Assembly (NCBI RefSeq): GCF_002234575.2
Contig: NZ_CP022464.2
Coordinates: 3,119,944 to 3,151,943 of the forward strand
Direction: 5' to 3'
Source: Enterocloster bolteae
GTDB lineage: Bacteria; Bacillota; Clostridia; Lachnospirales; Lachnospiraceae
Length of the DNA: 32,000 bases
Part shown: piece by piece, positions 1,997-16,202 of the stretch
Layout of the letters: each line of letters opens with the position of its first letter
How positions within the stretch are numbered: position 1 is the stretch's first letter
Position numbers and translations under genes: made by a program
The notes under the pieces: model-generated
Databases searched by the model: none
Told to the model about the DNA's origin: nothing
The model's input: the letters and a program-made list of their open reading frames with translations, nothing else

Positions 1997-4982
1997 CAAC
2001 ATTAAGGGTATTACTATTGAGATTGGCGGAGATACAACCAAGTTGCAAAATGCCTTAAAGGGTGTAAACGGGGACCTCAAAAGTACCAAGAATGAGTTAA
2101 AAGAGGTTGAAAAGGGCTTGAAATTAGACCCCAAGAATACCGAACTTTTAGCACAGAAACAACAGTTGCTTACAAAGGCAGTAGGCGAAACCAAAGATAA
2201 ATTAGATGTATTAAAAACGGCAGAAGCCCAGGTGGAGCAGCAGTTTAAAAACGGCGAAGCATCCGAGGAGCAGTACCGGGCAATCAAACGTGAAGTAATC
2301 GCAACGGAAGCAGAACTTAAAAACCTGGAAGAGCAAGCAAAGGCGAGTAATTCAACGCTTGCAAAGGTGGGGGATGCTTTTGGAACGGTAGGGGATAAGG
2401 CAACCAAAGCCGGGGAAAAGATGATGCCCGTAACGGCCGGAATAACCGCATTAGGAGCAGCCGGGGTTGCTGCATCTATGGAATTAGATAACGGCTATGA
2501 CACCATTATTACCAAGACGGGAGCAACCGGGGAAGCCCTGGAAAGCCTTACGACAGTAGCGGACAATGTATTTTCAGATATGCCAACTACAATGGATGAT
2601 GTGGGCGTAGCGGTTGGAGAAGTAAATACAAGGTTCGGGGCAACCGGGACAGAGTTAGAAAATCTTTCAAAAGAATTTATTAAATTTGCAAACATCAACG
2701 GAACGGATTTAAACACGGCTATTGATAGCGTGGACAGTATTATGACAAAATTCGGCGTTGATGCTTCACAGACAAAAAATGTGTTGGGGCTTATGACAAA
2801 AGCGGGCCAGGACACGGGTATTTCAATGGAAACATTGGAAACCGCACTTACAACCAACGGTGCAAGCCTTAAAGAAATGGGGCTTGATTTAACATCATCC
2901 GTTAATTTGCTTGCACAAATGGAAGCAAGCGGCGTTGATGTTTCAACCGCACTTGCCGGAATGAAAAAAGCGGTTCAGAACGCAACGGCAGACGGCAAGA
3001 GTGCAGACGAAGCATTGACCGAAACAATAGATAGCATTAAAAACGCAAAGACAGAAACGGAAGCCTTAACCATTGCATCCGACCTTTTCGGAAAGAAAGG
3101 TGCGGCGGAAATGACCCAGGCAATCCGTGAGGGGCGCTTATCCGTAGACGATTTAAGCGGTGCTTTATCAGACTATGGGGATGTGGTAAGTGACACATTT
3201 GAAACCACATTAGACCCGTGGGATGATGCAGCCGTAGCAATGAACAATTTGAAACTTGCCGGGGCAGACCTGGGAAGTTCCATTTTAACCACATTGCAGC
3301 CAACAATTGATAAGGTTGTGAACAAGGTAAAAGAGTTTACAACATGGTTTAAAAACCTGGACGACAACACAAAACAGATGATTGTAAAAATCGGAATGAT
3401 TGTTGCGGCTATCGGCCCGGCTTTAATCATATTTGGGAAAATGTCAACGGGAATATCCGGGGTAATAAAAACCGTAACGGGATTAACAAGCAAAATAGGC
3501 GGAATGAGTGGTGTTTTATCAGCACTCACGGGACCGGTTGGAATAGTGATTGCTATTATAGCGGCACTTGCCGCCGGGTTCATTGCTTTATATAAAACGA
3601 ATGATGAATTTAAAGAGAAAGTGGACGGGACCATAGGAAAGGTAAAGGATGCCTTTTCGCAGATGTGGACAACCATACAACCGCTTTTGGAGAGCCTAAA
3701 GCAAGCGTTTATTAACCTCATGGCTGCATTAAAACCCGTATTTGAATTTGTTCTTACATACATAGCAAGTATTGTAAATGGGGTTATCAATGCAGCAGCA
3801 CCGATAATTGCAGCAATCCAAAATGTGATTGATTTTGTTACCAATATCATAAATGCCATTATAGCGTTATTACATGGAGATTTTGACGGTTTCTTTTCGT
3901 ATCTGCAAGGTGCGTTTAATAGTGCAATATCGTTTGTAAAAAACATCATCCAGGCGGTTATAAATTTCATAATCGGATTTTTAGAGGGGTTCGGCGTAAA
4001 TGTAAAAACATTATTTACCAATATTTGGAATAGCATTGTTGCCGTATTCCAGGGCGTGGGTCAGTGGTTCAGTGACCGATTTACGGAAGCATGGAACGCA
4101 ATAACCACAATTTTTTCTGCAATCGGTTCATGGTTCGCCGCCAGGTGGAACGACATAAAAACCGCCCTTGCGACCGTGGCAACGTGGTTTCTTACCATGT
4201 TTACAAATGCCTATACGAATGTAACAAACGTATTCGCTACAATCGGTTCATGGTTCGCCGCAAGGTGGAACGATATAAAAACCGCCCTTGCAGCAGTAGC
4301 CACATGGTTTTTAACTATGTTCACAAACGCATACACCAACGTAACAAATGTATTTGCTGCAATTGGTTCATGGTTTGGGGCAAGGTGGACGGAGATAAAA
4401 ACCGCCCTTGCATCCGTTCCAACATGGTTTAAAACACAGTTTGATAACGCATGGACGAACATAAAAAACGCATTTGCCAATGTAACTTCCTTTTTCTCTG
4501 ATTTATGGGAGAAAATCAAGGGTTGTTTCGTAAATGTCGGTACGGCAATTGGTAGTGCGGTAAGTGATGCTTTTAAATCGGCAATCAACAGTTGCCTATC
4601 AACCATAGAGGGCGTTGTAAATAAGTTTATCGGTATGATTAACGGGGTAATTGGAATTATCAATGAGATACCGGGCGTTTCACTTTCAAAAATTGATACG
4701 CTTTCACTTCCGAGACTTGCAAAGGGCGGTGTATTAAGAGAGGGTACGGCAATGGTAGCAGAAGCCGGGCCGGAACTTTTAAGCATGGTAAACGGAAAAG
4801 CGGTTGTAACACCGCTTACGGGTTCAGCCGTAAACACGGCAGCAGACAACCTAAAGGGTAATAATGGCGGTTTCCACCAGGAAATCAATATTACAAGCCC
4901 TAAAGCCCTATCCCCTTATGAAGTGGCAAGACAAACGAGAATACAGACCCGTGCAATGGCTATTGCAATGCAGAGGGGGTAA
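1989..4982 (+). CDS. tail tape measure protein
   Basis: 997 aa counted from the GTG at 1989, which is preceded by AAGGGGGA. The N-terminus VANNIKGITIEIGGDT and a coiled-coil region are TMP-like. There is a central hydrophobic/TM block, W/F-periodic repeats, and the canonical position after the chaperones. Confidence 0.9.
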   Translation: MANNIKGITIEIGGDTTKLQNALKGVNGDLKSTKNELKEVEKGLKLDPKNTELLAQKQQLLTKAVGETKDKLDVLKTAEAQVEQQFKNGEASEEQYRAIKREVIATEAELKNLEEQAKASNSTLAKVGDAFGTVGDKATKAGEKMMPVTAGITALGAAGVAASMELDNGYDTIITKTGATGEALESLTTVADNVFSDMPTTMDDVGVAVGEVNTRFGATGTELENLSKEFIKFANINGTDLNTAIDSVDSIMTKFGVDASQTKNVLGLMTKAGQDTGISMETLETALTTNGASLKEMGLDLTSSVNLLAQMEASGVDVSTALAGMKKAVQNATADGKSADEALTETIDSIKNAKTETEALTIASDLFGKKGAAEMTQAIREGRLSVDDLSGALSDYGDVVSDTFETTLDPWDDAAVAMNNLKLAGADLGSSILTTLQPTIDKVVNKVKEFTTWFKNLDDNTKQMIVKIGMIVAAIGPALIIFGKMSTGISGVIKTVTGLTSKIGGMSGVLSALTGPVGIVIAIIAALAAGFIALYKTNDEFKEKVDGTIGKVKDAFSQMWTTIQPLLESLKQAFINLMAALKPVFEFVLTYIASIVNGVINAAAPIIAAIQNVIDFVTNIINAIIALLHGDFDGFFSYLQGAFNSAISFVKNIIQAVINFIIGFLEGFGVNVKTLFTNIWNSIVAVFQGVGQWFSDRFTEAWNAITTIFSAIGSWFAARWNDIKTALATVATWFLTMFTNAYTNVTNVFATIGSWFAARWNDIKTALAAVATWFLTMFTNAYTNVTNVFAAIGSWFGARWTEIKTALASVPTWFKTQFDNAWTNIKNAFANVTSFFSDLWEKIKGCFVNVGTAIGSAVSDAFKSAINSCLSTIEGVVNKFIGMINGVIGIINEIPGVSLSKIDTLSLPRLAKGGVLREGTAMVAEAGPELLSMVNGKAVVTPLTGSAVNTAADNLKGNNGGFHQEINITSPKALSPYEVARQTRIQTRAMAIAMQRG
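4121..4480 (+). repeat. three tandem 120-bp (40-aa) repeats inside the tape measure gene
   Basis: AATCGGTTCATGG at 4121 and 4241, and AATTGGTTCATGG at 4361. The repeated peptide is IGSWFAARWNDIKTALAxVATWFLTMFTNAYTNVTNVFA, and the third copy is more diverged. Confidence 0.85.
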
Positions 4983-8071: not shown

Positions 8072-8566
8072 ATGGTAGGATTTCCAAAAGTAATTAAGAC
8101 AAAGGCGGATTTAGTCAACACTTACAAACTTGTAAAGAAAGGCAGATTGAAGAAAAAAGATTGGTTGGCAGCAGTTGAGAAGTTGGAAAATCAGAATTTC
8201 ATCTTTTGCCCTATCCTGGAGAAAACCGAGGATAGAAAGGGCGTTACACTTATGTTTGTAAACGAGGTTACAGAGGGGGACAAGGTAAAAGCCGGGAACG
8301 CGACCGCAACCGTTAAGACCGTGGAGCATATCGAGGTTGAAAAGGCAGCAGAAGCAGACCAGGAAGCGGCAGCAGTAGAGGGAACGGCGGCAGCAGATGC
8401 CGAAACAACCACAAATAACAATCAGACCAAGCACACAATTTTGACACTTTCAAAGGCTATTGCGGCGGATGCGGCTACAATCGGTATTCCGGCAGAAGTT
8501 ACATTTTATGACCGCCTGGGAATTACAGAAGAGGAAGTGGAGCAGATGAAAGGAGAGTTAGCATAA
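8072..8566 (+). CDS. hypothetical phage protein, translationally coupled to the DGR target gene
   Basis: 164-aa ORF with an RBS (AGAGAGGA). It has a central Ala/Glu/Thr-rich low-complexity linker. Its stop overlaps the next start (TAATG at 8564-8568). Confidence 0.4.
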   Translation: MVGFPKVIKTKADLVNTYKLVKKGRLKKKDWLAAVEKLENQNFIFCPILEKTEDRKGVTLMFVNEVTEGDKVKAGNATATVKTVEHIEVEKAAEADQEAAAVEGTAAADAETTTNNNQTKHTILTLSKAIAADAATIGIPAEVTFYDRLGITEEEVEQMKGELA

Positions 8567-9660
8567 TGGGAAGATTATTTGTTTATGACGAGAATATGAC
8601 GGACGAGAGGGCGAAAATCACAGTTGCTAAAATGGCCGCCGTATCGGACATTGTAGCGAGTGAAAAGGCGTTTATACAGTATTCCGCAGCCGGACAATTA
8701 ACCGTGCTTGCCGGGGCAGTTATTGCGGTAGGGGATGCCATTTTTCAGACCGAGGAAACAACGCTTTCAGCTGCCAACCTGGACGGTGCAAGCAGCTTTG
8801 CACACGGCAAAGATTATTACATTTACTTATGCAACAATGGCAAGGACAGTTCAAACGAGGTTTATTTAATCTCTGAAAATTCCACATTCCCGGACGGCGT
8901 GGAATGGGACGATACAAACACCCGTAAAATTGGCGGTTTCCACTATGGCTTTGTTAGAAATGTGGATGAATACGGCAGAGAAGTAAATACAAGTGGAAGT
9001 GTGCGTGGTAGCGGTTGGGAAAGTAACGTGCATGAGGACATTGCCCCTAACTCCGTATGGACCGCCTTACACCGTCCGAAGTGCGACCCGTCCGGTATGG
9101 CATACCTGGGGAATGGTTTGTGGGCTGATATTTACCTTGCATCAGATGATGGGGCGAACGGCTTACAATCTGTATATAATGCAACGCCTATTACGGGTAC
9201 AGAGGGTTTAAATTGGTATATTGCCAATGAAAAGGCTGCCCGTGTCGGAAAGCGTTTACCGGACCTTGCAGAGTGGTTAATTGCAGCAGAGGGAAGCCCC
9301 CAGGGATTAGACGGCAGCAATACAAACGGTTGGACCGCAACAACCAACACTGCAAGAACCGCCGTTGGAAAAATCAAAAATGCAATTTCTGTAAAAAACA
9401 TTATGGACATTGCCGGGAACGTGTGGGAATGGATTAACGAGTTGTGTTTAGACCCAACCGCTGCATCCTGGAATTGGTACAATGTTATGTCCGGCTACGG
9501 TCAAATTTATATGCCGTCACAAACAGCCTTGCACGCCCTCGTTGGCGGCGGCCATTGGGGCAGCGGCGTGCATTGCGGTAGCCGTGCCGTCGGTTGCAGC
9601 GATTACCCGTGGTACGTGACCGCGAGCATTGGTGTGCGGTGCGTGTGTGACAGTCTGTAA
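8566..9660 (+). CDS. DGR target protein: tail-module receptor-binding candidate with a C-terminal FGE-sulfatase/C-type-lectin-like fold carrying the VR
   Basis: The motif IAGNVWEWINE is the typical GNVWEW signature of FGE-sulfatase/CLec domains. The last 42 codons are the VR, which matches the TR downstream. The gene lies between the fibre-like genes and avd. Confidence 0.9.
   Translation: MGRLFVYDENMTDERAKITVAKMAAVSDIVASEKAFIQYSAAGQLTVLAGAVIAVGDAIFQTEETTLSAANLDGASSFAHGKDYYIYLCNNGKDSSNEVYLISENSTFPDGVEWDDTNTRKIGGFHYGFVRNVDEYGREVNTSGSVRGSGWESNVHEDIAPNSVWTALHRPKCDPSGMAYLGNGLWADIYLASDDGANGLQSVYNATPITGTEGLNWYIANEKAARVGKRLPDLAEWLIAAEGSPQGLDGSNTNGWTATTNTARTAVGKIKNAISVKNIMDIAGNVWEWINELCLDPTAASWNWYNVMSGYGQIYMPSQTALHALVGGGHWGSGVHCGSRAVGCSDYPWYVTASIGVRCVCDSL
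9525..9651 (+). repeat. DGR variable region (VR)
   Basis: 127 nt align without gaps to 10179-10305. There are 13 mismatches, and every one is at a TR adenine (10 A->G, 2 A->C, 1 A->T). Confidence 0.92.
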
Positions 9661-9667
9661 TCTGCCA

Positions 9668-9687
9668 GGGTGGGCGAAAGCCCACCC
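9668..9687 (+). promoter_or_regulatory. GC-rich hairpin (8-bp stem, GAAA loop) downstream of VR; candidate DGR target-recognition element
   Basis: GGGTGGGC-GAAA-GCCCACCC forms a perfect stem. It starts 16 nt after the VR/TR homology ends. No T-run follows, and no equivalent hairpin follows TR. Confidence 0.7.
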
Positions 9688-9719: not shown

Positions 9720-10109
9720 ATGGCAGAGAACAAGAAAAGCAATCAAGCGGATGCGTATATGGAGAGCATGAAAGCGTATCAAAAGACCTATGATTTTCTT
9801 TTATACCTTTATCCCATATTGTCACAGTTTCCGAAATTTGAGAAATTCGCATTGCAGAGCCAAATTAAAACGGCGGTTTTTGAAATGCTTAAATCAGTAA
9901 TCAGATTTAGAAAGACCGGGACAAAGAGCCATATATATAACGCAGATGTAGAGTTGCAGTTTATCAAAACCCTCATACGGCTTTCCTACGATTTGGAATA
10001 TCCGGCAATGAGCAAACACAGATACGAAGTATTGAGTAAGAAAATGACAGAATTAGGATGTATCATTGGCGGAATAATCGAAGCCGTAAAGAATGGAAAT
10101 TGGAAATAA
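9720..10109 (+). CDS. avd: accessory variability determinant (Avd-like four-helix-bundle protein)
   Basis: 129-aa basic helical protein with RBS GAGGA 7 nt upstream. The motif YQKTYDFLLYLYPILSQFPKFEKFALQSQI is typical of the four-helix-bundle (23S rRNA IVS-like)/bAvd family. It sits between the target gene and TR. Confidence 0.8.
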   Translation: MAENKKSNQADAYMESMKAYQKTYDFLLYLYPILSQFPKFEKFALQSQIKTAVFEMLKSVIRFRKTGTKSHIYNADVELQFIKTLIRLSYDLEYPAMSKHRYEVLSKKMTELGCIIGGIIEAVKNGNWK

Positions 10110-10178
10110 TGTTGGCATTGCCAATTTTATTTTGGGGAAACTGTTAATATGCACCGGGCCAGTTCACGGAACTTTCCG

Positions 10179-10305
10179 AGCCTTGCACGCCCTCATTGGC
10201 GGCGGCAATTGGAACAACGGCGTGCATTGCGGTAGCCGTGCCGTCAATTGCAACAATTACCCGTGGAACGTGAACACGAACATTGGTGTGCGGTGCGTGT
10301 GTGAC
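10179..10305 (+). repeat. DGR template repeat (TR)
   Basis: This is the invariant partner of VR. It contains 27 adenines, including nine AAY codons in the VR reading frame. The 3' 21 nt (10283-10303) contain no adenine. Confidence 0.92.
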
Positions 10306-10466
10306 TTTACAATTTTATAGACATAGAAGCCCAAGCGGCCACTAGCAAAGATTTACATTTTTTAAGTAAGTCAGACGGTTTGCCCGTTCCGGTGTGATAC
10401 CGGACAAACTAACAAAGCAAACCACCTTTTAGTAAAATAGAATATTTGAAAATTGGTAGGGATTAA

Positions 10467-11507
10467 ATGAAAACAGTAAAGGGACTACATGAGAAAATGG
10501 GGACCTTTGAAAATGCCAATACTTCATTCCACCAGGCGGCCAAGTGCAAGCGGTACACGGATGAGGTATTGGCTTTTTCTATGGTTAAGGAAGAGGAACT
10601 TTTAAGAGCAACCGAGGAAATACAGAATTTAACATATAGGCAAGGGGAATATAAGATATTTAAGGTGTTTGAGCCAAAAGAACGGCTTATTATGGCGTTG
10701 CCGTTCTATGATAGAGTGGTGCAACACATGATTTGTAACGCTATTCAACCCGTATTTGAGAACGGATTTTATTACCATTCTTACGCTTGCCGGACCGGTA
10801 AGGGGATGCACGCCGCAAGTGATACATTGTATCAATGGATGTATGAAACAGAGGTTAAACAAGGGTTAAGGATGTATGCCTTTAAAGGGGACATATCAAA
10901 GTATTTTGCATCTATACCACATGACAAATTAAAGGATGAAAACCGCCGCTATATAGGGGATAAGAAAGCCCTTATGTTAATGGACGATATTATAGACCAC
11001 AACGGCATATTGCCGGACGGCGTGGGAATACCCGTTGGAAACCTCACAAGTCAGTTATTTGCGAATGTGTACGGCAATAAGTTAGATAAATTTTGCAAGC
11101 ACGTTTTACATATTCCGTATTTTGTGCGGTACATGGATGATTTTATTATCCTATCGGATGATTTGGAGCAGTTGAAAGAATGGGTTAAGAGAATAGAAGA
11201 ATTTTTGGAAAATGAAATGCTTTTGCATATTAACCCTAAAAGCACAATCCTATACGCTGGGAATGGCATAGATTTTTGCGGATATATCCACTATGCAGAC
11301 CACAAGAAAGTAAGAAAATCATCTATCAGAAAGTTAAAGCAAGATGTAAAGGCGTATGAGTTGGGCGAATTGCCGCCGGAAGAATTTAACCGGAAGTACG
11401 AAAGCAGAAAGGGACATTTAGGACACGCCGACACATACCACATTGCAAAGGCGGTTGAATACGAATTGTTGTTCTATGAATGGGAACGCCTGGAAGCAGC
11501 GGCGTAA
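10467..11507 (+). CDS. DGR reverse transcriptase
   Basis: The motif VRYMDDFIILS is the YxDD catalytic motif. IPVGNLTSQLFANVY carries the xGNxxSQ signature characteristic of DGR RTs. The protein is 346 aa and lies directly downstream of TR. Confidence 0.9.
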   Translation: MKTVKGLHEKMGTFENANTSFHQAAKCKRYTDEVLAFSMVKEEELLRATEEIQNLTYRQGEYKIFKVFEPKERLIMALPFYDRVVQHMICNAIQPVFENGFYYHSYACRTGKGMHAASDTLYQWMYETEVKQGLRMYAFKGDISKYFASIPHDKLKDENRRYIGDKKALMLMDDIIDHNGILPDGVGIPVGNLTSQLFANVYGNKLDKFCKHVLHIPYFVRYMDDFIILSDDLEQLKEWVKRIEEFLENEMLLHINPKSTILYAGNGIDFCGYIHYADHKKVRKSSIRKLKQDVKAYELGELPPEEFNRKYESRKGHLGHADTYHIAKAVEYELLFYEWERLEAAA

Positions 11508-11577: not shown

Positions 11578-12006
11578 ATGGAGAAAATGTTTAACTTTAT
11601 TTCCGTGATTGGTGGATTGGTTGGCGGTTTTATCGTTTCGTTGTTCGGCGGTTGGGATGTGATGTTATACACAATATTGCTTTTTGCTATCCTGGATTAT
11701 TTCACGGGCATTTTGAAAGCAGTCTATAAAAAAGAACTTTCAAGTGCAATCGGATTTAAGGGGATTGTAAAAAAAATCATGGTATTTGTGGTTATCGCAG
11801 TTGCCTACAACGTGCAGAGAATGACCGGGGACACAATACCATTAAGGGAAATTGTTATTGTTTTCTTTATCTGCAATGAAGCACTTTCTATTTTGGAAAA
11901 TGCGGCGGAATTTATCAACATACCGCAGCAGTTAAAAGATGTGCTTTTGCAGTTAAGGGACAAGAACGCAGCGAAAGCGGAAGAAAAAGAAGAAAGCGAG
12001 GAATAA
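11578..12006 (+). CDS. phage holin (holin_4 / toxin-secretion-lysis holin type)
   Basis: 142 aa with three hydrophobic segments and a charged C-terminal tail (KNAAKAEEKEESEE). It lies immediately upstream of the endolysin. Confidence 0.75.
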   Translation: MEKMFNFISVIGGLVGGFIVSLFGGWDVMLYTILLFAILDYFTGILKAVYKKELSSAIGFKGIVKKIMVFVVIAVAYNVQRMTGDTIPLREIVIVFFICNEALSILENAAEFINIPQQLKDVLLQLRDKNAAKAEEKEESEE

Positions 12007-12009
12007 GAC

Positions 12010-12954
12010 ATGGCAACAAAAGACCAGGTAAACGCCTTTATTGCGAAATTGGCAGCAATTGCAAGAAAAGAATATTTAACCCGTGATAAATGGGTTTTAC
12101 CGTCCGTATGTATCGCACAGGCAGCATTAGAAACCGGGTGGGGAACATCCGGGCTTATGACAAAAGCCAATGCGTTTTTTGGCATCAAGGCCGGCAGCAG
12201 TTGGAAAGGCAAGGTTTACAGTAGCAAAACAAACGAGTGCTATGACGGCAAGACCTACACGCAGATTACCGCCGCTTTCCGTGCTTATGATAGCCTGGAA
12301 GAGAGTGTGGCGGATTATTACAATCTGATTTGCGGAAGTTCCCGTTATGCCGGAGCGGTAAACAACGGAAACGCCGAAAGTGCCATTACCGCAATCAAAA
12401 ACGGCGGATATGCAACAAGTCCTACATACATCAAGAATGTAATGAACATCATCAATTCTTACAACCTTACACAGTATGACACATGGGACGGAGAGAACCA
12501 GGGACCGGCAAACAAGGAAACCCACGGTTACAAGGTGGGGGACAAGGTAAGAGTGATTGATAACATCACATACAACGGGGTGCGTTTCGCAACCTATTAT
12601 GATGAATATGATGTTATCCAGGTAAACGGGGACCGTGTTGTTATCGGTATCGGTAACACCGTGACGGCAGCAGTAAACGCCGCCAACATTGCAAAGGATG
12701 AAGAGATTGCAGAAGCCCCGGCGGATGCGGAAACACCAACCGACATTCCGACCCAGGAAGAAACAGAGAACGCCCACGGTTTCAAGGTAGGGCAGAAAGT
12801 AAAGGTTATCAATGCTTATGATTACTACGGTAATATGTTTAAGTGTTGGTACAGTAAATATGATGTTATCGAGGTTAAGAATGACAGAATTGTTATTGGT
12901 ATCGGTAGCACCGTAACGGCAGCAGTAAACGCCGCCAATTTAGCAGCAGCATAA
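12010..12954 (+). CDS. endolysin: N-terminal glucosaminidase (mannosyl-glycoprotein endo-beta-N-acetylglucosaminidase) domain plus two C-terminal SH3-like wall-binding repeats
   Basis: The motif AQAALETGWGTS is typical of the glucosaminidase/FlgJ-C family. Two ~57-aa repeats (HGYKVGDKVRVID... and HGFKVGQKVKVIN...) are encoded at nt 12523-12693 and 12775-12945. Confidence 0.85.
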   Translation: MATKDQVNAFIAKLAAIARKEYLTRDKWVLPSVCIAQAALETGWGTSGLMTKANAFFGIKAGSSWKGKVYSSKTNECYDGKTYTQITAAFRAYDSLEESVADYYNLICGSSRYAGAVNNGNAESAITAIKNGGYATSPTYIKNVMNIINSYNLTQYDTWDGENQGPANKETHGYKVGDKVRVIDNITYNGVRFATYYDEYDVIQVNGDRVVIGIGNTVTAAVNAANIAKDEEIAEAPADAETPTDIPTQEETENAHGFKVGQKVKVINAYDYYGNMFKCWYSKYDVIEVKNDRIVIGIGSTVTAAVNAANLAAA

Positions 12955-13017: not shown

Positions 13018-13050
13018 AAAAGCACACCTTAAAAAGTGTGCTTTTTTCTT
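13018..13050 (+). terminator. rho-independent terminator after the lysis cassette
   Basis: Stem AGCACAC (13021-27) pairs with GTGTGCT (13036-42). An 8-nt loop separates them and a T-run follows. Confidence 0.7.
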
Positions 13051-13064
13051 TATTTTAAAAGATT

Positions 13065-13142
13065 TTTAAAATAGTACGGAATATGTGTTGACATAGTACG
13101 GAATATGTAATATAATAAAGACAGTTAAGAGAGGAACACAAA
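13065..13142 (+). promoter_or_regulatory. consensus sigma-70-type promoter P1 with two direct operator-like repeats (copy 1 of a 78-bp repeat)
   Basis: TTGACA (13088-93), a 17-bp spacer, then TATAAT (13111-16). ATAGTACGGAATATGT occurs at 13071-86 and 13093-108. Confidence 0.7.
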
Positions 13143-13160
13143 GAAAGTGAGGAAAAGAAA

Positions 13161-13322
13161 ATGTGGGAAGTAGTAAAAACAGTAAAGGGATATGATATAA
13201 CAAGAATGATTGGAAGCCGTGGTGCTTACCATGTATCAGTAAGAGAGGGAAAAGGCTTTAGAGAGTTCCACACATTCAAAACCATAAAGGCAGCGGTTGA
13301 GTTTATCGAAACTGCACTATAA
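13161..13322 (+). CDS. hypothetical small protein (53 aa)
   Basis: The ATG is preceded by GTGAGGAAAAG. This is the first ORF after P1. It is below the ORF-track length cutoff, and I translated it by hand (MWEVVKTVKGYDITRM...). Confidence 0.4.
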   Translation: MWEVVKTVKGYDITRMIGSRGAYHVSVREGKGFREFHTFKTIKAAVEFIETAL

Positions 13323-13362
13323 GCATTGAGCCGGGGCAAAGTCCCCGGCGGAAAGGGAAAAC

Positions 13363-13575
13363 ATGGATATTACAAAAGAATTAGCAAGAGCGGTAAAATA
13401 TTACATGATAATGGAAGATGTTTTTTTAAATCCGGGGAATTTTAAGGAAGCACATAAAAATTTTGTTGAAAAAATGGAAGAATACGAGAAAAAGGAAAAT
13501 TTAACGGAAGAGGAAGCACAATATAACATAGAAATGGCAGTAGAAGCATTGAAAAAATACAGGGCGGAACAATAG
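13363..13575 (+). CDS. hypothetical small acidic protein (70 aa)
   Basis: ORF with RBS AAAGGGAAAA. No family recognised. Confidence 0.45.
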   Translation: MDITKELARAVKYYMIMEDVFLNPGNFKEAHKNFVEKMEEYEKKENLTEEEAQYNIEMAVEALKKYRAEQ

Positions 13576-13907
13576 CCGCCCGGCAACTAAAACGGCCACA
13601 CCGTGAACGGGTGCGAGTGTCCCAAGCCACTATAAACCGTTGAGGGGTTGCAACAATAGGCGTTGCGGTACTGTCTGACAAGTTTTGACCCACGTTTTAA
13701 TGTGAAACGGGGAAGCAATGAGGAATACACCGGGCAAGGGTGCATTGCTTATATACACAATCGTTTAGACCAATGCCCGGAAACCCAAAACGCCTATATG
13801 ATGCAACTATATATTGAAACCCGTTGTTTCTGTGATTTTATCAATGGTAAATACACGCACTTTTAAGCCTGGCACATTCCGCCGGGCTTATTGCACATAA
13901 AAATAAA

Positions 13908-13985
13908 TTTAAAATAGTACGGAATATGTATTGACATAGTACGGAATATGTTATATAATAAAGACAGTTAAGGGAGATACACAAA
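13908..13985 (+). promoter_or_regulatory. promoter P2 (copy 2 of the 78-bp repeat)
   Basis: TTGACA (13931-36), a 17-bp spacer, then TATAAT (13954-59). ATAGTACGGAATATGT occurs at 13914-29 and 13936-51. About 5 mismatches to copy 1 at a fixed offset of 843 bp. Confidence 0.7.
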
Positions 13986-14023
13986 CTTAATGAGTAATGG
14001 GCAAGCATAGAAAGGAGAACTTT

Positions 14024-14164
14024 ATGGACGAGGATATGAACGTAGGCGAGTTACTTAAAGAAACGGCAGAAGAAAATCAGACCAGGAAAATACTTGAAAT
14101 CTTAAACGAGTGCAAGGACCTGGCAGAAGCCAAAGAAAGAGTAAAAGCCCTACTTAATAAGTAA
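14024..14164 (+). CDS. hypothetical small protein (46 aa)
   Basis: ATG after AAAGGAGAA. This is the first ORF after P2, translated by hand (MDEDMNVGELLKETAEEN...). Confidence 0.35.
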   Translation: MDEDMNVGELLKETAEENQTRKILEILNECKDLAEAKERVKALLNK

Positions 14165-14263
14165 GGCTTTAGGGAAACAGAAAGGGCGGTGGACTTGCCA
14201 AAGCCGCCCTAAACTGTAAAAAGTATTATACACCATTTGGCAAGAGAAAGGAAGAGGGCGTAA

Positions 14264-14479
14264 ATGCCAAAAATAAAAAAAGAGTTCGACCAAACGAAAT
14301 ATCAGAACGAATATAAAAAGAAAACCTACGACCGCATGGAATTACTTGTGCCAAAGGGAGAAAAAGCAGTAATAAAGGAAAAAGCGGCAGCAGCAGGGAC
14401 AAGTGTAAATGAGTTTGTGTATTCAGCGGTAAAAGAAAAAATGGAAGCAATGGAAGCGGCAACGGAAACAGAAGAGTAG
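14264..14479 (+). CDS. ribbon-helix-helix (Arc/CopG-like) DNA-binding protein
   Basis: 71 aa. The segment YDRMELLVPKGEKAVIKEKAAAAGTSVNEFVYSAV has a beta-strand / helix / helix pattern typical of RHH proteins. Confidence 0.5.
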   Translation: MPKIKKEFDQTKYQNEYKKKTYDRMELLVPKGEKAVIKEKAAAAGTSVNEFVYSAVKEKMEAMEAATETEE

Positions 14480-14504
14480 CACGGAAGAAAGCGAGGAACA
14501 CAAC

Positions 14505-15038
14505 ATGGGATTATTTAGTAACCTATTTTCTAAAAAGAACACGGCAGCAGTACAACCGCAGCCCGTACAGATGCCGGAAGAAAAAAAGCCAAGATACATT
14601 GTAAAAAGTCAACGGTTCATCCTGGATAATATAAAAGACCACATGGAAGATATTATGGACCTTGTGGAGAAAAACGAGGATTACAAGTTAAAAAAGAAAG
14701 ACCTTATAGAAGATGATAGGACGGATGAAAATATTTATGAATATGAATTGAACGAAAAAGCCACAATAACCCCTACATCTTGTGAGGGGGGGGGGGTGGA
14801 ACAACTACAAGTATTTGTGTGTAATACCCACATTGGAGATATTAAAAAAGGCGGCGTAAGCAAAGTAAAGAACCTTTTAAAGAAAGGAAATATAGAAAAT
14901 ATATGGTCCGAGGTTTCCGGCGGAAATTACAAAAGACTAAGGTATGATGCCGGGAAAGATGTATATTACTATGATGAATTAGAAAAAGAATTTAGTATTA
15001 CCATTGAAATAACCTATAAAGAGGAAATCACAGAATAA
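14505..15038 (+). CDS. hypothetical phage accessory protein containing a G11 homopolymer
   Basis: 177-aa ORF with RBS GAGGAACACAAC. No confident family, only a weak HIRAN-like impression for the C-terminal half. The G11 tract at 14786-14796 encodes E-GGG-V. Confidence 0.5.
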   Translation: MGLFSNLFSKKNTAAVQPQPVQMPEEKKPRYIVKSQRFILDNIKDHMEDIMDLVEKNEDYKLKKKDLIEDDRTDENIYEYELNEKATITPTSCEGGGVEQLQVFVCNTHIGDIKKGGVSKVKNLLKKGNIENIWSEVSGGNYKRLRYDAGKDVYYYDELEKEFSITIEITYKEEITE

Positions 15039-15086
15039 GGAAAGAAGCATAGGAAACAGACGGGGACAACAACGGATTATTCCGGG

Positions 15087-16202
15087 TTGTCCCTATTGCC
15101 GTATCAAGGGGGTTATTTTTATGGGTAGAAAATACAGACAGTTAAGCCAAAATGATAGAATATCAATGGAAACACTACTTAACAAAGGTCATTCCGTACA
15201 AGAGGTTGCGGATTATTTGCACGTTCACAGAAGCACCATTTACAGAGAAATGAAACGGGGCGAGTATGTACATAGAAATTCAGACTATACGGAAGAGGTG
15301 CGTTATAGTAGTGATAAGGGGCAGCAGACCCATGATTGGAACGCCCAGGGCAAAGGCAGAAACATTAAAATAGGCAATGATATTAAATTGGCGGAATACA
15401 TAGAAAATAAGATTGTGGAAAATAAATATAGCCCGGAAGCGGCGTTGGCAGCAGTAGCCACAAGCGGAATAGAATTTAGTACCACTATAAGCGTAAGAAC
15501 CCTATACCGCTATATTGATAACGGCATATTCCTTAAACTTACCAACAAGCATTTACCCGTTAAGGGCAAGAAGAAAAAGAAAAATAAGAAAGTCCAGGTG
15601 CAGAAGAGGGCAGCAGCCGGGGAGAGCATAGAGAACCGCCCGGATGAAGTGGCAACCCGTGAAACATTCGGACATTGGGAAATGGACACAGTAAAGGGCA
15701 AACAAGGCGTTACAAAATCATGTATGCTTGTATTAACAGAGAGAAAGACCAGGGACGAGATTATATTTAAACTGAAAGACCAAAAGGCGGAAAGCGTGGT
15801 GGATGCCATGGACCGTTTAGAAAGAAAATGGGGAGATATGTTTTCTAAAGTGTTTAGAAGCATCACGGTAGATAATGGCGTGGAGTTTTCGGATTGTAAG
15901 GGCATGGAGCGTTCAGCGTTGACACCAGGGGAGAAACGCACATATCTATTCTATTGCCACCCATACAGTAGTTGGGAGAGAGGGACCAACGAAAACACCA
16001 ACAAACTAATCCGCCGCCATATCCCTAAAGGGGAAGATTTTGACGAAAAGCAAGATAGGGACATTGAGTTTATAGAAAATTGGATAAACACATACCCACG
16101 GGGCATTTTCGGTTTCAAAACATCAGAAGAATTATTTAAAGAAGAGTTGGAGAAAATCACGGCATAATATTTTTTAAAAACTTGTCGCAAAACTATTGAC
16201 AA
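15087..16202 (+). mobile_element. IS30-family insertion sequence (ends tentative)
   Basis: It contains a single IS30-type transposase gene. The candidate imperfect inverted repeats are TTGTCCCTATTGCCGTATCAAG (15087-15108) and the reverse complement of 16181-16202 (TTGTCAATAGTTTTGCGACAAG), matching at 13/22 positions ungapped. The boundaries are uncertain. Confidence 0.5.
15121..16167 (+). CDS. IS30 family transposase
   Basis: N-terminal HTH (RISMETLLNKGHSVQEVADYLHVHRSTIYREMKRG). DDE-type core with HWEMDTV, ITVDNGVEF and PYSSWERGTNENTNKLIRR. Confidence 0.9.
   Translation: MGRKYRQLSQNDRISMETLLNKGHSVQEVADYLHVHRSTIYREMKRGEYVHRNSDYTEEVRYSSDKGQQTHDWNAQGKGRNIKIGNDIKLAEYIENKIVENKYSPEAALAAVATSGIEFSTTISVRTLYRYIDNGIFLKLTNKHLPVKGKKKKKNKKVQVQKRAAAGESIENRPDEVATRETFGHWEMDTVKGKQGVTKSCMLVLTERKTRDEIIFKLKDQKAESVVDAMDRLERKWGDMFSKVFRSITVDNGVEFSDCKGMERSALTPGEKRTYLFYCHPYSSWERGTNENTNKLIRRHIPKGEDFDEKQDRDIEFIENWINTYPRGIFGFKTSEELFKEELEKITA

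Follow-up and report, generated by a model that had tools for sequence, protein, structure and literature searches.

Why do two 127-nt repeats in a prophage of Enterocloster bolteae ATCC BAA-613 differ from each other at adenines and nowhere else? The window analyzed here is a stretch of 32,000 nucleotides of contig NZ_CP022464.2 (positions 3,119,944 to 3,151,943, forward strand; coordinates below are those of the window). One repeat forms the 3′ end of a phage tail gene, and the other is a non-coding copy beside a reverse transcriptase (RT) gene. Our analysis indicates that the locus is almost certainly a canonical diversity-generating retroelement (DGR) of the BPP-1 type, carried in the tail/lysis arm of a siphovirus-like prophage, and it strongly supports mutagenic retrohoming in this lineage. 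The order target, avd, template repeat (TR) and RT makes up a complete BPP-1-type cassette, with a variable repeat (VR) inside the target gene:

8566-9660, + strand: target gene, encoding a 364-aa Mtd-like, putative receptor-binding protein of the phage tail with a C-terminal C-type-lectin/FGE-type domain
9525-9651, + strand: VR, 127 nt, codons 321-362 of the 364-codon target gene
9720-10109, + strand: avd (accessory variability determinant), 129 aa, with Pfam bAvd, PHROG and PDB matches
10179-10305, + strand: TR, the non-coding master copy, 127 nt with 27 adenines
10306-10466, + strand: spacer (Sp), 161 nt with four hairpins, part of the presumed DGR RNA
10467-11507, + strand: DGR RT, 346 aa (Pfam RVT_1, 1e-19; PHROG 1423, 4e-116)

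When recomputed base by base, VR aligns to TR without gaps at a constant offset of 654, and the two differ at 13 sites (TR positions 10195, 10207, 10213, 10214, 10217, 10246, 10247, 10253, 10255, 10267, 10274, 10276 and 10280). Every one of these is an A in TR; the VR base is G at ten, C at two and T at one. As the composition of TR is A27 C33 G40 T27, VR is changed at 13 of 27 adenines (48%) and at 0 of the 100 other bases, and the hypergeometric probability that 13 random mismatches would all fall on adenines is 1.05e-10. Similarity between the repeats breaks off sharply at either end of the 127 nt, and a repeat search found the pair to be the largest repeat in the region. In the frame of the target gene, the changes from TR to VR amount to eleven replacements (I326V, N330H, N332G, N333S, N343G, N345S, N346D, N350Y, N352T, T353A and N354S), with both adenines altered in codons 332 and 343.

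A first-pass annotation of this DNA had reported the same offset, the same 13 positions and base changes, the same contrast between adenines and other bases and the same eleven replacements. All were reproduced exactly, and the check for mismatches at non-adenine positions of TR returned none. That annotation took the adenine specificity to be the footprint of mutagenic retrohoming, an interpretation supported by the completeness of the cassette, the VRs of related cassettes and the transfer of sequence from TR to VR. Non-A-masked matching on both strands revealed no further TR-like copy, second VR or remote target in the window. A 75-aa open reading frame (ORF) at 10093-10320 runs across TR in the VR frame and ends with a pseudo-copy of the target C terminus; it arises from the repeat itself and could mislead annotation, but is not a gene.

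VR turnover and TR-to-VR transfer across related cassettes

Related cassettes were collected with RT-protein scans, which returned 2 genome, 21 viral and 74 metagenome loci, mostly from the human gut (individual loci are given L numbers). A second viral scan added 36 locus ids, 16 of which were repeats of contigs already counted. Both repeats were present in 61 of the 97 first loci, giving, with the window, 62 VR/TR pairs. TR was the same as that of the window in 39 of the 62 cassettes, while the 62 VRs comprised 61 distinct sequences; the flanks of the sole identical pair, L019 and L096, were identical too. To define rates, we used a clean set of 50 pairs in which TR differs from the window TR at 3 or fewer positions. 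Divergent lineages were left out of this set, as were L082 and L083, in which indels put the ungapped alignment out of register; L032, with a VR belonging to another lineage of TR; and L050, L073 and L077, whose TR locus itself carries A-site changes.

Across the clean set, VR differs from its cognate TR at 551 of 1350 A sites (41%) and at 11 of 5000 non-A sites (0.22%). With nothing excluded, the counts are 662 of 1633 and 78 of 6241, respectively. All adenines of the repeat are variable in the clean pairs save that at repeat index 125 (TR 10304, VR 9650), which is constant in the 50 copies and is the only A beyond index 103 (TR 10282), the last variable one. The frequency of A-site change in the window and in the population is near the 52% misincorporation at A measured in vitro for bRT-Avd, and the non-A frequency is in the range of the in vitro rate of 0.3-1.6% (PMC7826257).

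The same contrast is seen in nucleotide diversity (pi), which was computed over 24 full-length close relatives:

VR, A sites: 0.51
VR, non-A sites: 0.0066
TR: 0.003
Spacer, the most conserved stretch of the cassette: 0.0016
avd and RT: 0.009
Rest of the target gene: 0.015-0.019

The first-pass annotation had proposed a comparison of VRs across related copies and had named identical VRs with substitutions unrelated to TR adenines as one result that would count against it. VR differences unrelated to TR adenines were looked for in the related cassettes, and this refuting pattern did not appear; TR proved near-invariant, and VR hypervariable only at TR adenines. Moreover, among 71 non-A variants of TR that are specific to a lineage, 70 are also present in the cognate VR. 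Information thus flows between TR and VR, with adenines alone being scrambled.

If VR is rewritten from TR, how quickly does this occur? Over 2815 flanking nt, L007 is identical to L008 and L038 to L039, yet the VRs of the first two are unlike at 6 of 27 A sites and those of the second two at 10. Where 1-2 differences separate the flanks, VR differs at 14-18 A sites, and VR distance is nearly uncorrelated with flank distance overall (rho = 0.16). Since identical flanks accompany unlike VRs, VR turnover must be much faster than background mutation. Clusters at 90% identity, in which the target has 12503 distinct sequences and the RT 4022, agree with fast turnover.

The layout of TR bears on what this turnover can produce. 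Nearly all TR adenines (26 of 27) lie at codon positions 1-2 of the VR frame. Nine AAY codons can each give 15 amino acids, and seven other A-bearing codons (CAC, ATT, CAT, AGC, TAC, ACG and ATT) can each give 4. No adenine substitution can create a stop codon, and the 50 VRs contain none. By placing its adenines in this way, TR can specify a theoretical repertoire of ~6e14 proteins (~1e15 DNA variants), and so as many putative receptor-binding surfaces, without ever producing a stop. Such a repertoire would let the phage follow changes in host surface receptors. The scaffold codons His323, His336, Ser339 and Tyr347 are 2-4 times less variable than AAY codons, changing in 14-24% of copies compared with 22-68% at AAY sites, which suggests that purifying selection acts on top of mutagenesis.

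Replacements at TR adenines in the 50 copies were G in 336 cases (61%), T in 135 (24.5%) and C in 80 (14.5%). Broken down by codon position, the counts were G 160, T 34 and C 24 at position 2, where G was most in excess, and G 175, T 101 and C 55 at position 1, where the excess was milder.

One cassette departs from this pattern. The VR of L032 (635-761) has 10 non-A mismatches to its own TR (1289-1415), which is of the window type, and several of the mismatched sites also differ between divergent TR lineages and the window TR. In L032, recombination or chimerism has joined a VR of one TR lineage to a TR of another, and this VR has not been rewritten from its present neighbor.

Proteins, cis elements and spacer of the cassette

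The target protein matches Pfam mtd_2nd (Mtd second domain, 7e-30), FGE-sulfatase (4e-11) and the tail protein family PHROG 11262 (1.5e-69). Its residues 30-364 align with crystal structures of BPP-1 Mtd (1yu4 and others; E 4e-14), placing the VR-encoded C termini opposite each other. VR thus lies, as in DGRs, at the 3′ end of an ORF with a predicted C-type-lectin fold, and the protein presumably serves as the receptor-binding protein of the phage tail. Its public annotation, 'SUMF1/EgtB/PvdO family nonheme iron enzyme', reflects a match to the FGE-type fold and is misleading for a protein of this kind. Exact protein look-up gave the accessions ASN95742.1 for the target, ASN95744.1 for the RT and ASN95761.1 for an RNase G encoded further downstream.

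The avd product matches Pfam bAvd (3e-25), PHROG 3206 ('Avd protein of DGR', 2e-27) and the PDB chains 4dwl (Bbp7) and 8ub7_B (Avd). For the RT, the top PDB match (E 2.8e-51) is 8ub7_A, a reverse transcriptase of 328 aa from a cryo-EM entry in which Avd is the partner chain; we take it to be the BPP-1 RT, bRT. The window RT contains VGNLTSQ at residues 190-196 and YMDD at 222-225, and its R73 aligns with R74 of bRT. The motif [I/V/L]GxxxSQ is the signature of the DGR clade of RTs, and R74 of bRT and the first residue of this motif promote adenine mutagenesis (Handa et al.). We also considered whether the RT could belong to a retron or a group II intron. Both were rejected, as RTs of these classes match it with E values of only 1e-13 to 1e-12, against 2.8e-51 for 8ub7_A, and no Rfam family, group II intron and retron RNAs included, reached the gathering threshold anywhere in the window.

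What would direct the changes to VR and spare TR? The candidate elements lie at and beyond the 3′ end of VR, and are listed here along with the hairpins of the spacer:

9629-9651 in VR and 10283-10305 in TR, + strand: invariant G/T-rich segment TTGGTGTGCGGTGCGTGTGTGAC common to both repeats, 23 nt with one A
9652-9667, + strand: VR-specific flank AGTCTGTAATCTGCCA, containing the stop codon (9658-9660) and unlike the sequence that flanks TR
9668-9687, + strand: GC hairpin/cruciform, GGGTGGGC-GAAA-GCCCACCC, with an 8-bp stem, 16 nt past VR
10324-10344, 10350-10372, 10374-10388 and 10389-10403, + strand: hairpins of the spacer, which show covariation

Variation ends on the 3′ side at TTGGTGTGCGGTGCGTGTGTGAC, which by analogy may form the boundary of mutagenesis, as a counterpart of the initiation of mutagenic homing (IMH)/GC element; such a role would match that of the GC-rich start of IMH in other DGRs. 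VR and TR are identical throughout these last 23 nt, and divergence begins only after the segment. DGRs in which IMH and its TR counterpart, IMH*, are alike within the repeat were anticipated by Wu et al. (PMC5758913). As IMH and IMH* do not differ within the repeat here, whatever tells them apart must lie in the 16-nt flank, in the hairpin or in the two together. The first 11 nt of the flank (9652-9662, through the stop codon) are constant even in relatives whose RT is only 75-81% identical, making 9652-9667 a candidate for the part of IMH that sets VR apart from TR.

The hairpin at 9668-9687 folds as DNA with -11.2 kcal/mol (z = -3.6), and 0 of 200 shuffles were as good. It is kept in all related loci; the stem of L068 (AGGTGGGC/GCCCACCT) shows a compensatory change, and the loop reads GGAA in L011, L019 and L021. 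No equivalent hairpin directly follows TR, where the sequence is different. Homing of BPP-1 requires a GC stem of 7-10 bp with a 4-nt loop of consensus GRNA, located 4-34 bp past VR, and stem structure, loop sequence and loop size all matter (Guo et al., PMC3240598). In stem length, GRNA loop and distance, the hairpin described here fits these findings. An alternative identity as an intrinsic terminator was rejected, as no run of T follows the hairpin and the terminator scan did not call it. A separate terminator-like hairpin (10111-10125, GTTGGCATTGCCAAT then TTTATTTTGG) begins directly after the avd stop codon, 53 nt before TR; it could reduce transcription running on into TR-RT, or it could delimit the DGR RNA in its 5′ region.

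The spacer hairpins were assessed in 22 sequences whose RTs are 75-100% identical. Overall, 97% of cells were paired and 9 pairs changed on both sides; the covariation score was matched by 0 of 500 shuffles and by no slid register. A conserved A-rich linker (10404-10417) follows the fourth hairpin, and no Rfam family covers the spacer. A candidate 4-bp pairing joins the 3′ end of TR (GGYG, 10285-10288) to the spacer (CRCC, 10423-10426). One of its pairs covaries (CG 17, UA 3) and two sequences break the pairing; if formed, it would parallel the TR-Sp contact of BPP-1. In BPP-1, the spacer supplies the priming adenosine, Sp A56, and cDNA starts at G117 in the GC-rich 3′ end of TR (PMC6182149, PMC5703328). 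By analogy, the E. bolteae spacer may have a similar priming arrangement.

Taken together with what is known of BPP-1, these elements suggest how the cassette could work. A transcript containing the avd 3′ region, TR and the structured spacer would be bound by an RT-Avd complex, by homology to BPP-1. Synthesis of cDNA would be self-primed from the spacer, start in the A-free 3′ end of TR and run toward the TR 5′ end, with RT copying C, G and U faithfully and misincorporating opposite approximately half of the template adenines. The cDNA would then replace VR at the 3′ end of the Mtd-like gene. Homology would guide it on the 5′ side; on the 3′ side, this role would fall to the GC hairpin with its GAAA loop, together with the VR-specific flank and the invariant G/T-rich segment.

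Alternative explanations and changes at the TR locus

Among the features that define a DGR, the A-restricted footprint, the RT motifs, an invariant TR with a hypervariable VR, an appropriate target, Avd, the hairpin and stop-free codons were found here. Several observations nonetheless weigh against this reading. With the last 23 nt of VR and TR identical, we can only infer what discriminates IMH from IMH*. When folded as a single sequence, neither the spacer (z = -1.5) nor the spacer joined to the 3′ end of TR (z = -0.4) does better than shuffles, so that the case for a structured spacer comes from comparative analysis. The natural spectrum of replacements is rich in G, whereas bRT would be expected to give a T-rich one, since dA is its most frequent insertion opposite A in vitro (A to T on the sense strand), with dC and then dG next in order (PMC7826257). 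Selection against hydrophobic residues or a different bias of the enzyme may be responsible, explanations that these data cannot separate. In addition, 203 contigs and four NCBI protein accessions carry the target protein in exactly this form, VR included, and two independent SRA assemblies agree with the window without a mismatch over 5095 and 4007 nt. As the same VR is obtained across sequencing efforts, the consensus VR of ATCC BAA-613 is stable.

Could the DGR be a fossil, in which VR was diversified in the past, the element is inactive in the present lysogen and the footprint is historical? The identical copies just described, with no change of the consensus VR within the strain, are what this explanation predicts, and we consider it a real, although unlikely, possibility. 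The parts that a working element would need are intact, however: the RT ORF has both its YMDD and its VGNLTSQ, avd and the hairpin are whole, and TR keeps each of its 27 adenines. The lack of any non-A mismatch between VR and TR leaves little time for drift since the last homing event, and cassettes with identical or near-identical flanks carry unrelated VRs. Homing frequencies of BPP-1 are low per generation, and a similarly low frequency in E. bolteae would leave the consensus unchanged in any case. Diversification that is infrequent, or confined to lytic growth, is therefore compatible with a stable consensus VR, and the DGR of ATCC BAA-613 may be active today. The first-pass statement that the element has been active thus holds for the lineage and for the last rewriting of VR, but current activity is not visible, as the consensus VR of the strain is constant.

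An ordinary duplication, with the copies diverging by random point mutation and selection on the coding copy, would explain the existence of a 127-nt repeat and nothing more. It is refuted by the probability of approximately 1e-10 that all 13 mismatches would fall on A, by the rates at A and non-A sites in the 50 copies and by the tracking of own-TR non-A changes in 70 of 71 cases, which requires copying. The non-A sites of VR are also less diverse than the surrounding gene (0.0066 versus 0.015-0.019). We consider this explanation exceedingly improbable.

Adenosine deamination of VR DNA (A-to-I editing or hypermutation), instead of error-prone reverse transcription, could account for the 10 of 13 window changes that are A to G and for the predominance of G in the population. 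Deamination yields A to G only, however, and 3 of the 13 changes here and 39% of those in the population are A to C or T. Neither would it carry non-A variants of TR into VR, nor would it need an adjacent RT, Avd and TR. These transversions, together with the transfer of non-A variants, refute it, and we give it almost no credence.

The reverse direction, in which VR is ancestral and TR arose by changes to A, would be permitted by one sequence pair alone, which has no direction, but it has a negligible chance of being correct and is refuted by the A-rich copy being identical in 39 of 62 cassettes, non-coding, beside the RT and without a hairpin, whereas the other copy is different in 61 of 62.

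Thus, a DGR that copies TR into VR remains our reading of the locus. Is its template ever altered by the same process? The TR locus of L077 (OLZH01000209.1, from a gut metagenome; positions 3689-3816) has 21 changes private to it, and each of them hits an adenine (18 A>G and 3 A>C). They span window-equivalent positions 10153-10280, between avd and the spacer, and no non-A change occurs between window-equivalent 10037 and 11267. In the 26 nt upstream of TR, outside the homology between TR and VR, 3 of 5 adenines are hit. Since a chimeric assembly of VR and TR cannot produce changes outside the homology, the simplest biological explanation is that an adenine-mutagenized cDNA of ~130-147 nt, extending past the TR 5′ end, was written back into its own template, implying leaky protection of the donor in this DGR family. 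We put this forward tentatively and with some doubt; an assembly artifact is a possible alternative. If the explanation is correct, natural populations record the 'burn-out' of TRs and the true 5′ extent of the cDNA.

Other TR loci also have unusual features. The TR-locus copies at L073:1533-1659 and L050:3715-3841 have 8 and 4 changes, respectively, which are restricted to adenines and lie entirely within the homology; they could reflect real TR mutagenesis or VR/TR chimeric assembly, and the coverage of L073 is 1.1x. Three loci (L035:2349-2475, L079:3715-3841 and L041:187-313) have one hybrid repeat each, flanked as VR is on the 5′ side and as TR is on the 3′ side. Only the 5′ part of the repeat has A-site changes, and these loci lack avd together with the 654-nt interval. 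Either homologous recombination between VR and TR deleted this interval or the assembler collapsed the repeats.

Prophage setting and relation to known DGRs

Upstream of the target gene, the window encodes a tape-measure protein, Dit, a Sipho_Gp37-type tail protein and further tail and virion proteins, and downstream of RT it encodes a holin and an endolysin. The holin-endolysin module (11578-12954) is mosaic among otherwise near-identical phages, with a pi of 0.156 versus 0.009 for the DGR cassette. The endolysin, which has a Glucosaminidase domain, ends in two direct repeats (12521-12693 and 12773-12945) spaced 252 nt (84 aa) apart, presumably cell-wall-binding repeats. The lysis genes are followed by a strong terminator (13018-13045), a perfect sigma-70-like promoter (13088-13116) and small ORFs, and an IS30-like transposase gene (15121-16167; HTH_38 + rve) precedes the host genes. 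The interval 13018-16167 is probably the right end of the prophage. Bacterial genes, encoding a GGDEF-EAL regulator, a radical SAM enzyme, RNase G and TrkA, begin at ~16.7 kb.

Compared with the BPP-1 DGR (mtd-avd-TR-brt), the E. bolteae element has the same gene order, a target homologous to Mtd over its full length in which VR encodes the C-terminal ~40 residues, homologous Avd and RT (E 2.8e-51 for the RT), an AAY-rich TR and changes at about half of its adenines. In both, mutagenesis stops toward the 3′ end within a segment that is A-free and rich in G, a hairpin lies past VR (here with an 8-bp GC stem and a GAAA loop), and the spacer between TR and RT is structured. In contrast, the E. 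bolteae element has a Gram-positive Clostridia host, lies in a siphovirus-type tail module with Dit and Sipho_Gp37 and has repeats whose last 23 nt are the same, which would place the discrimination between VR and TR further downstream. The two also differ in that the E. bolteae avd-TR gap is 69 nt and contains the terminator-like hairpin, and its natural spectrum is G-rich rather than T-rich. Its TR is 127 nt with 27 adenines, whereas that of BPP-1 is 134 nt. BPP-1 has 23 mutable adenines (Wu et al., PMC5758913).

DGRs of other gut Firmicutes prophages and phages (an E. rectale prophage, Faecalibacterium phage Lagaffe and Clostridium phage Saumur) are likewise phage-borne in gut Clostridia, and a GRNA-loop hairpin was reported for that of E. 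rectale (Guo et al. 2011, PMC3240598). By tblastn, the RTs of this group are the nearest among deposited phage genomes, the best being that of Saumur (host E. clostridioformis), at only 41% identity. A megablast search found no DNA match to the cassette in GenBank phages. The chromosomal DGRs of Legionella (LdtA) and Treponema (TvpA) share the adenine-specific TR-to-VR mechanism and a variable domain of the C-type-lectin/FGE type (Wu et al., PMC5758913), but these diversify cellular surface proteins, while the E. bolteae target is an Mtd-type tail protein of a phage.

The E. bolteae DGR is already known in kind and very probably catalogued, and its mechanism offers nothing new. The DiGReF 2012 catalogue lists a DGR RT of 'Clostridium bolteae ATCC BAA-613' (GI 160938970) with a TR/VR pair, its only 'bolteae' entry. 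This is probably the same element (ASN95744.1/EDP15693.1). None of the papers searched describes the element individually.

What does this DGR add? Related cassettes are common in human gut metagenomes, and more than 90 related contigs were retrieved in all. The resulting population data are an in vivo readout of per-site variability, the G-biased spectrum and the spacer helices that can be compared with in vitro data for BPP-1. The DGR is of the Mtd type, complete and apparently intact, and it resides in a type strain that can be cultured, from a gut Clostridium of medical relevance; it could thus serve as a Gram-positive model for DGR-driven switching of phage tropism.

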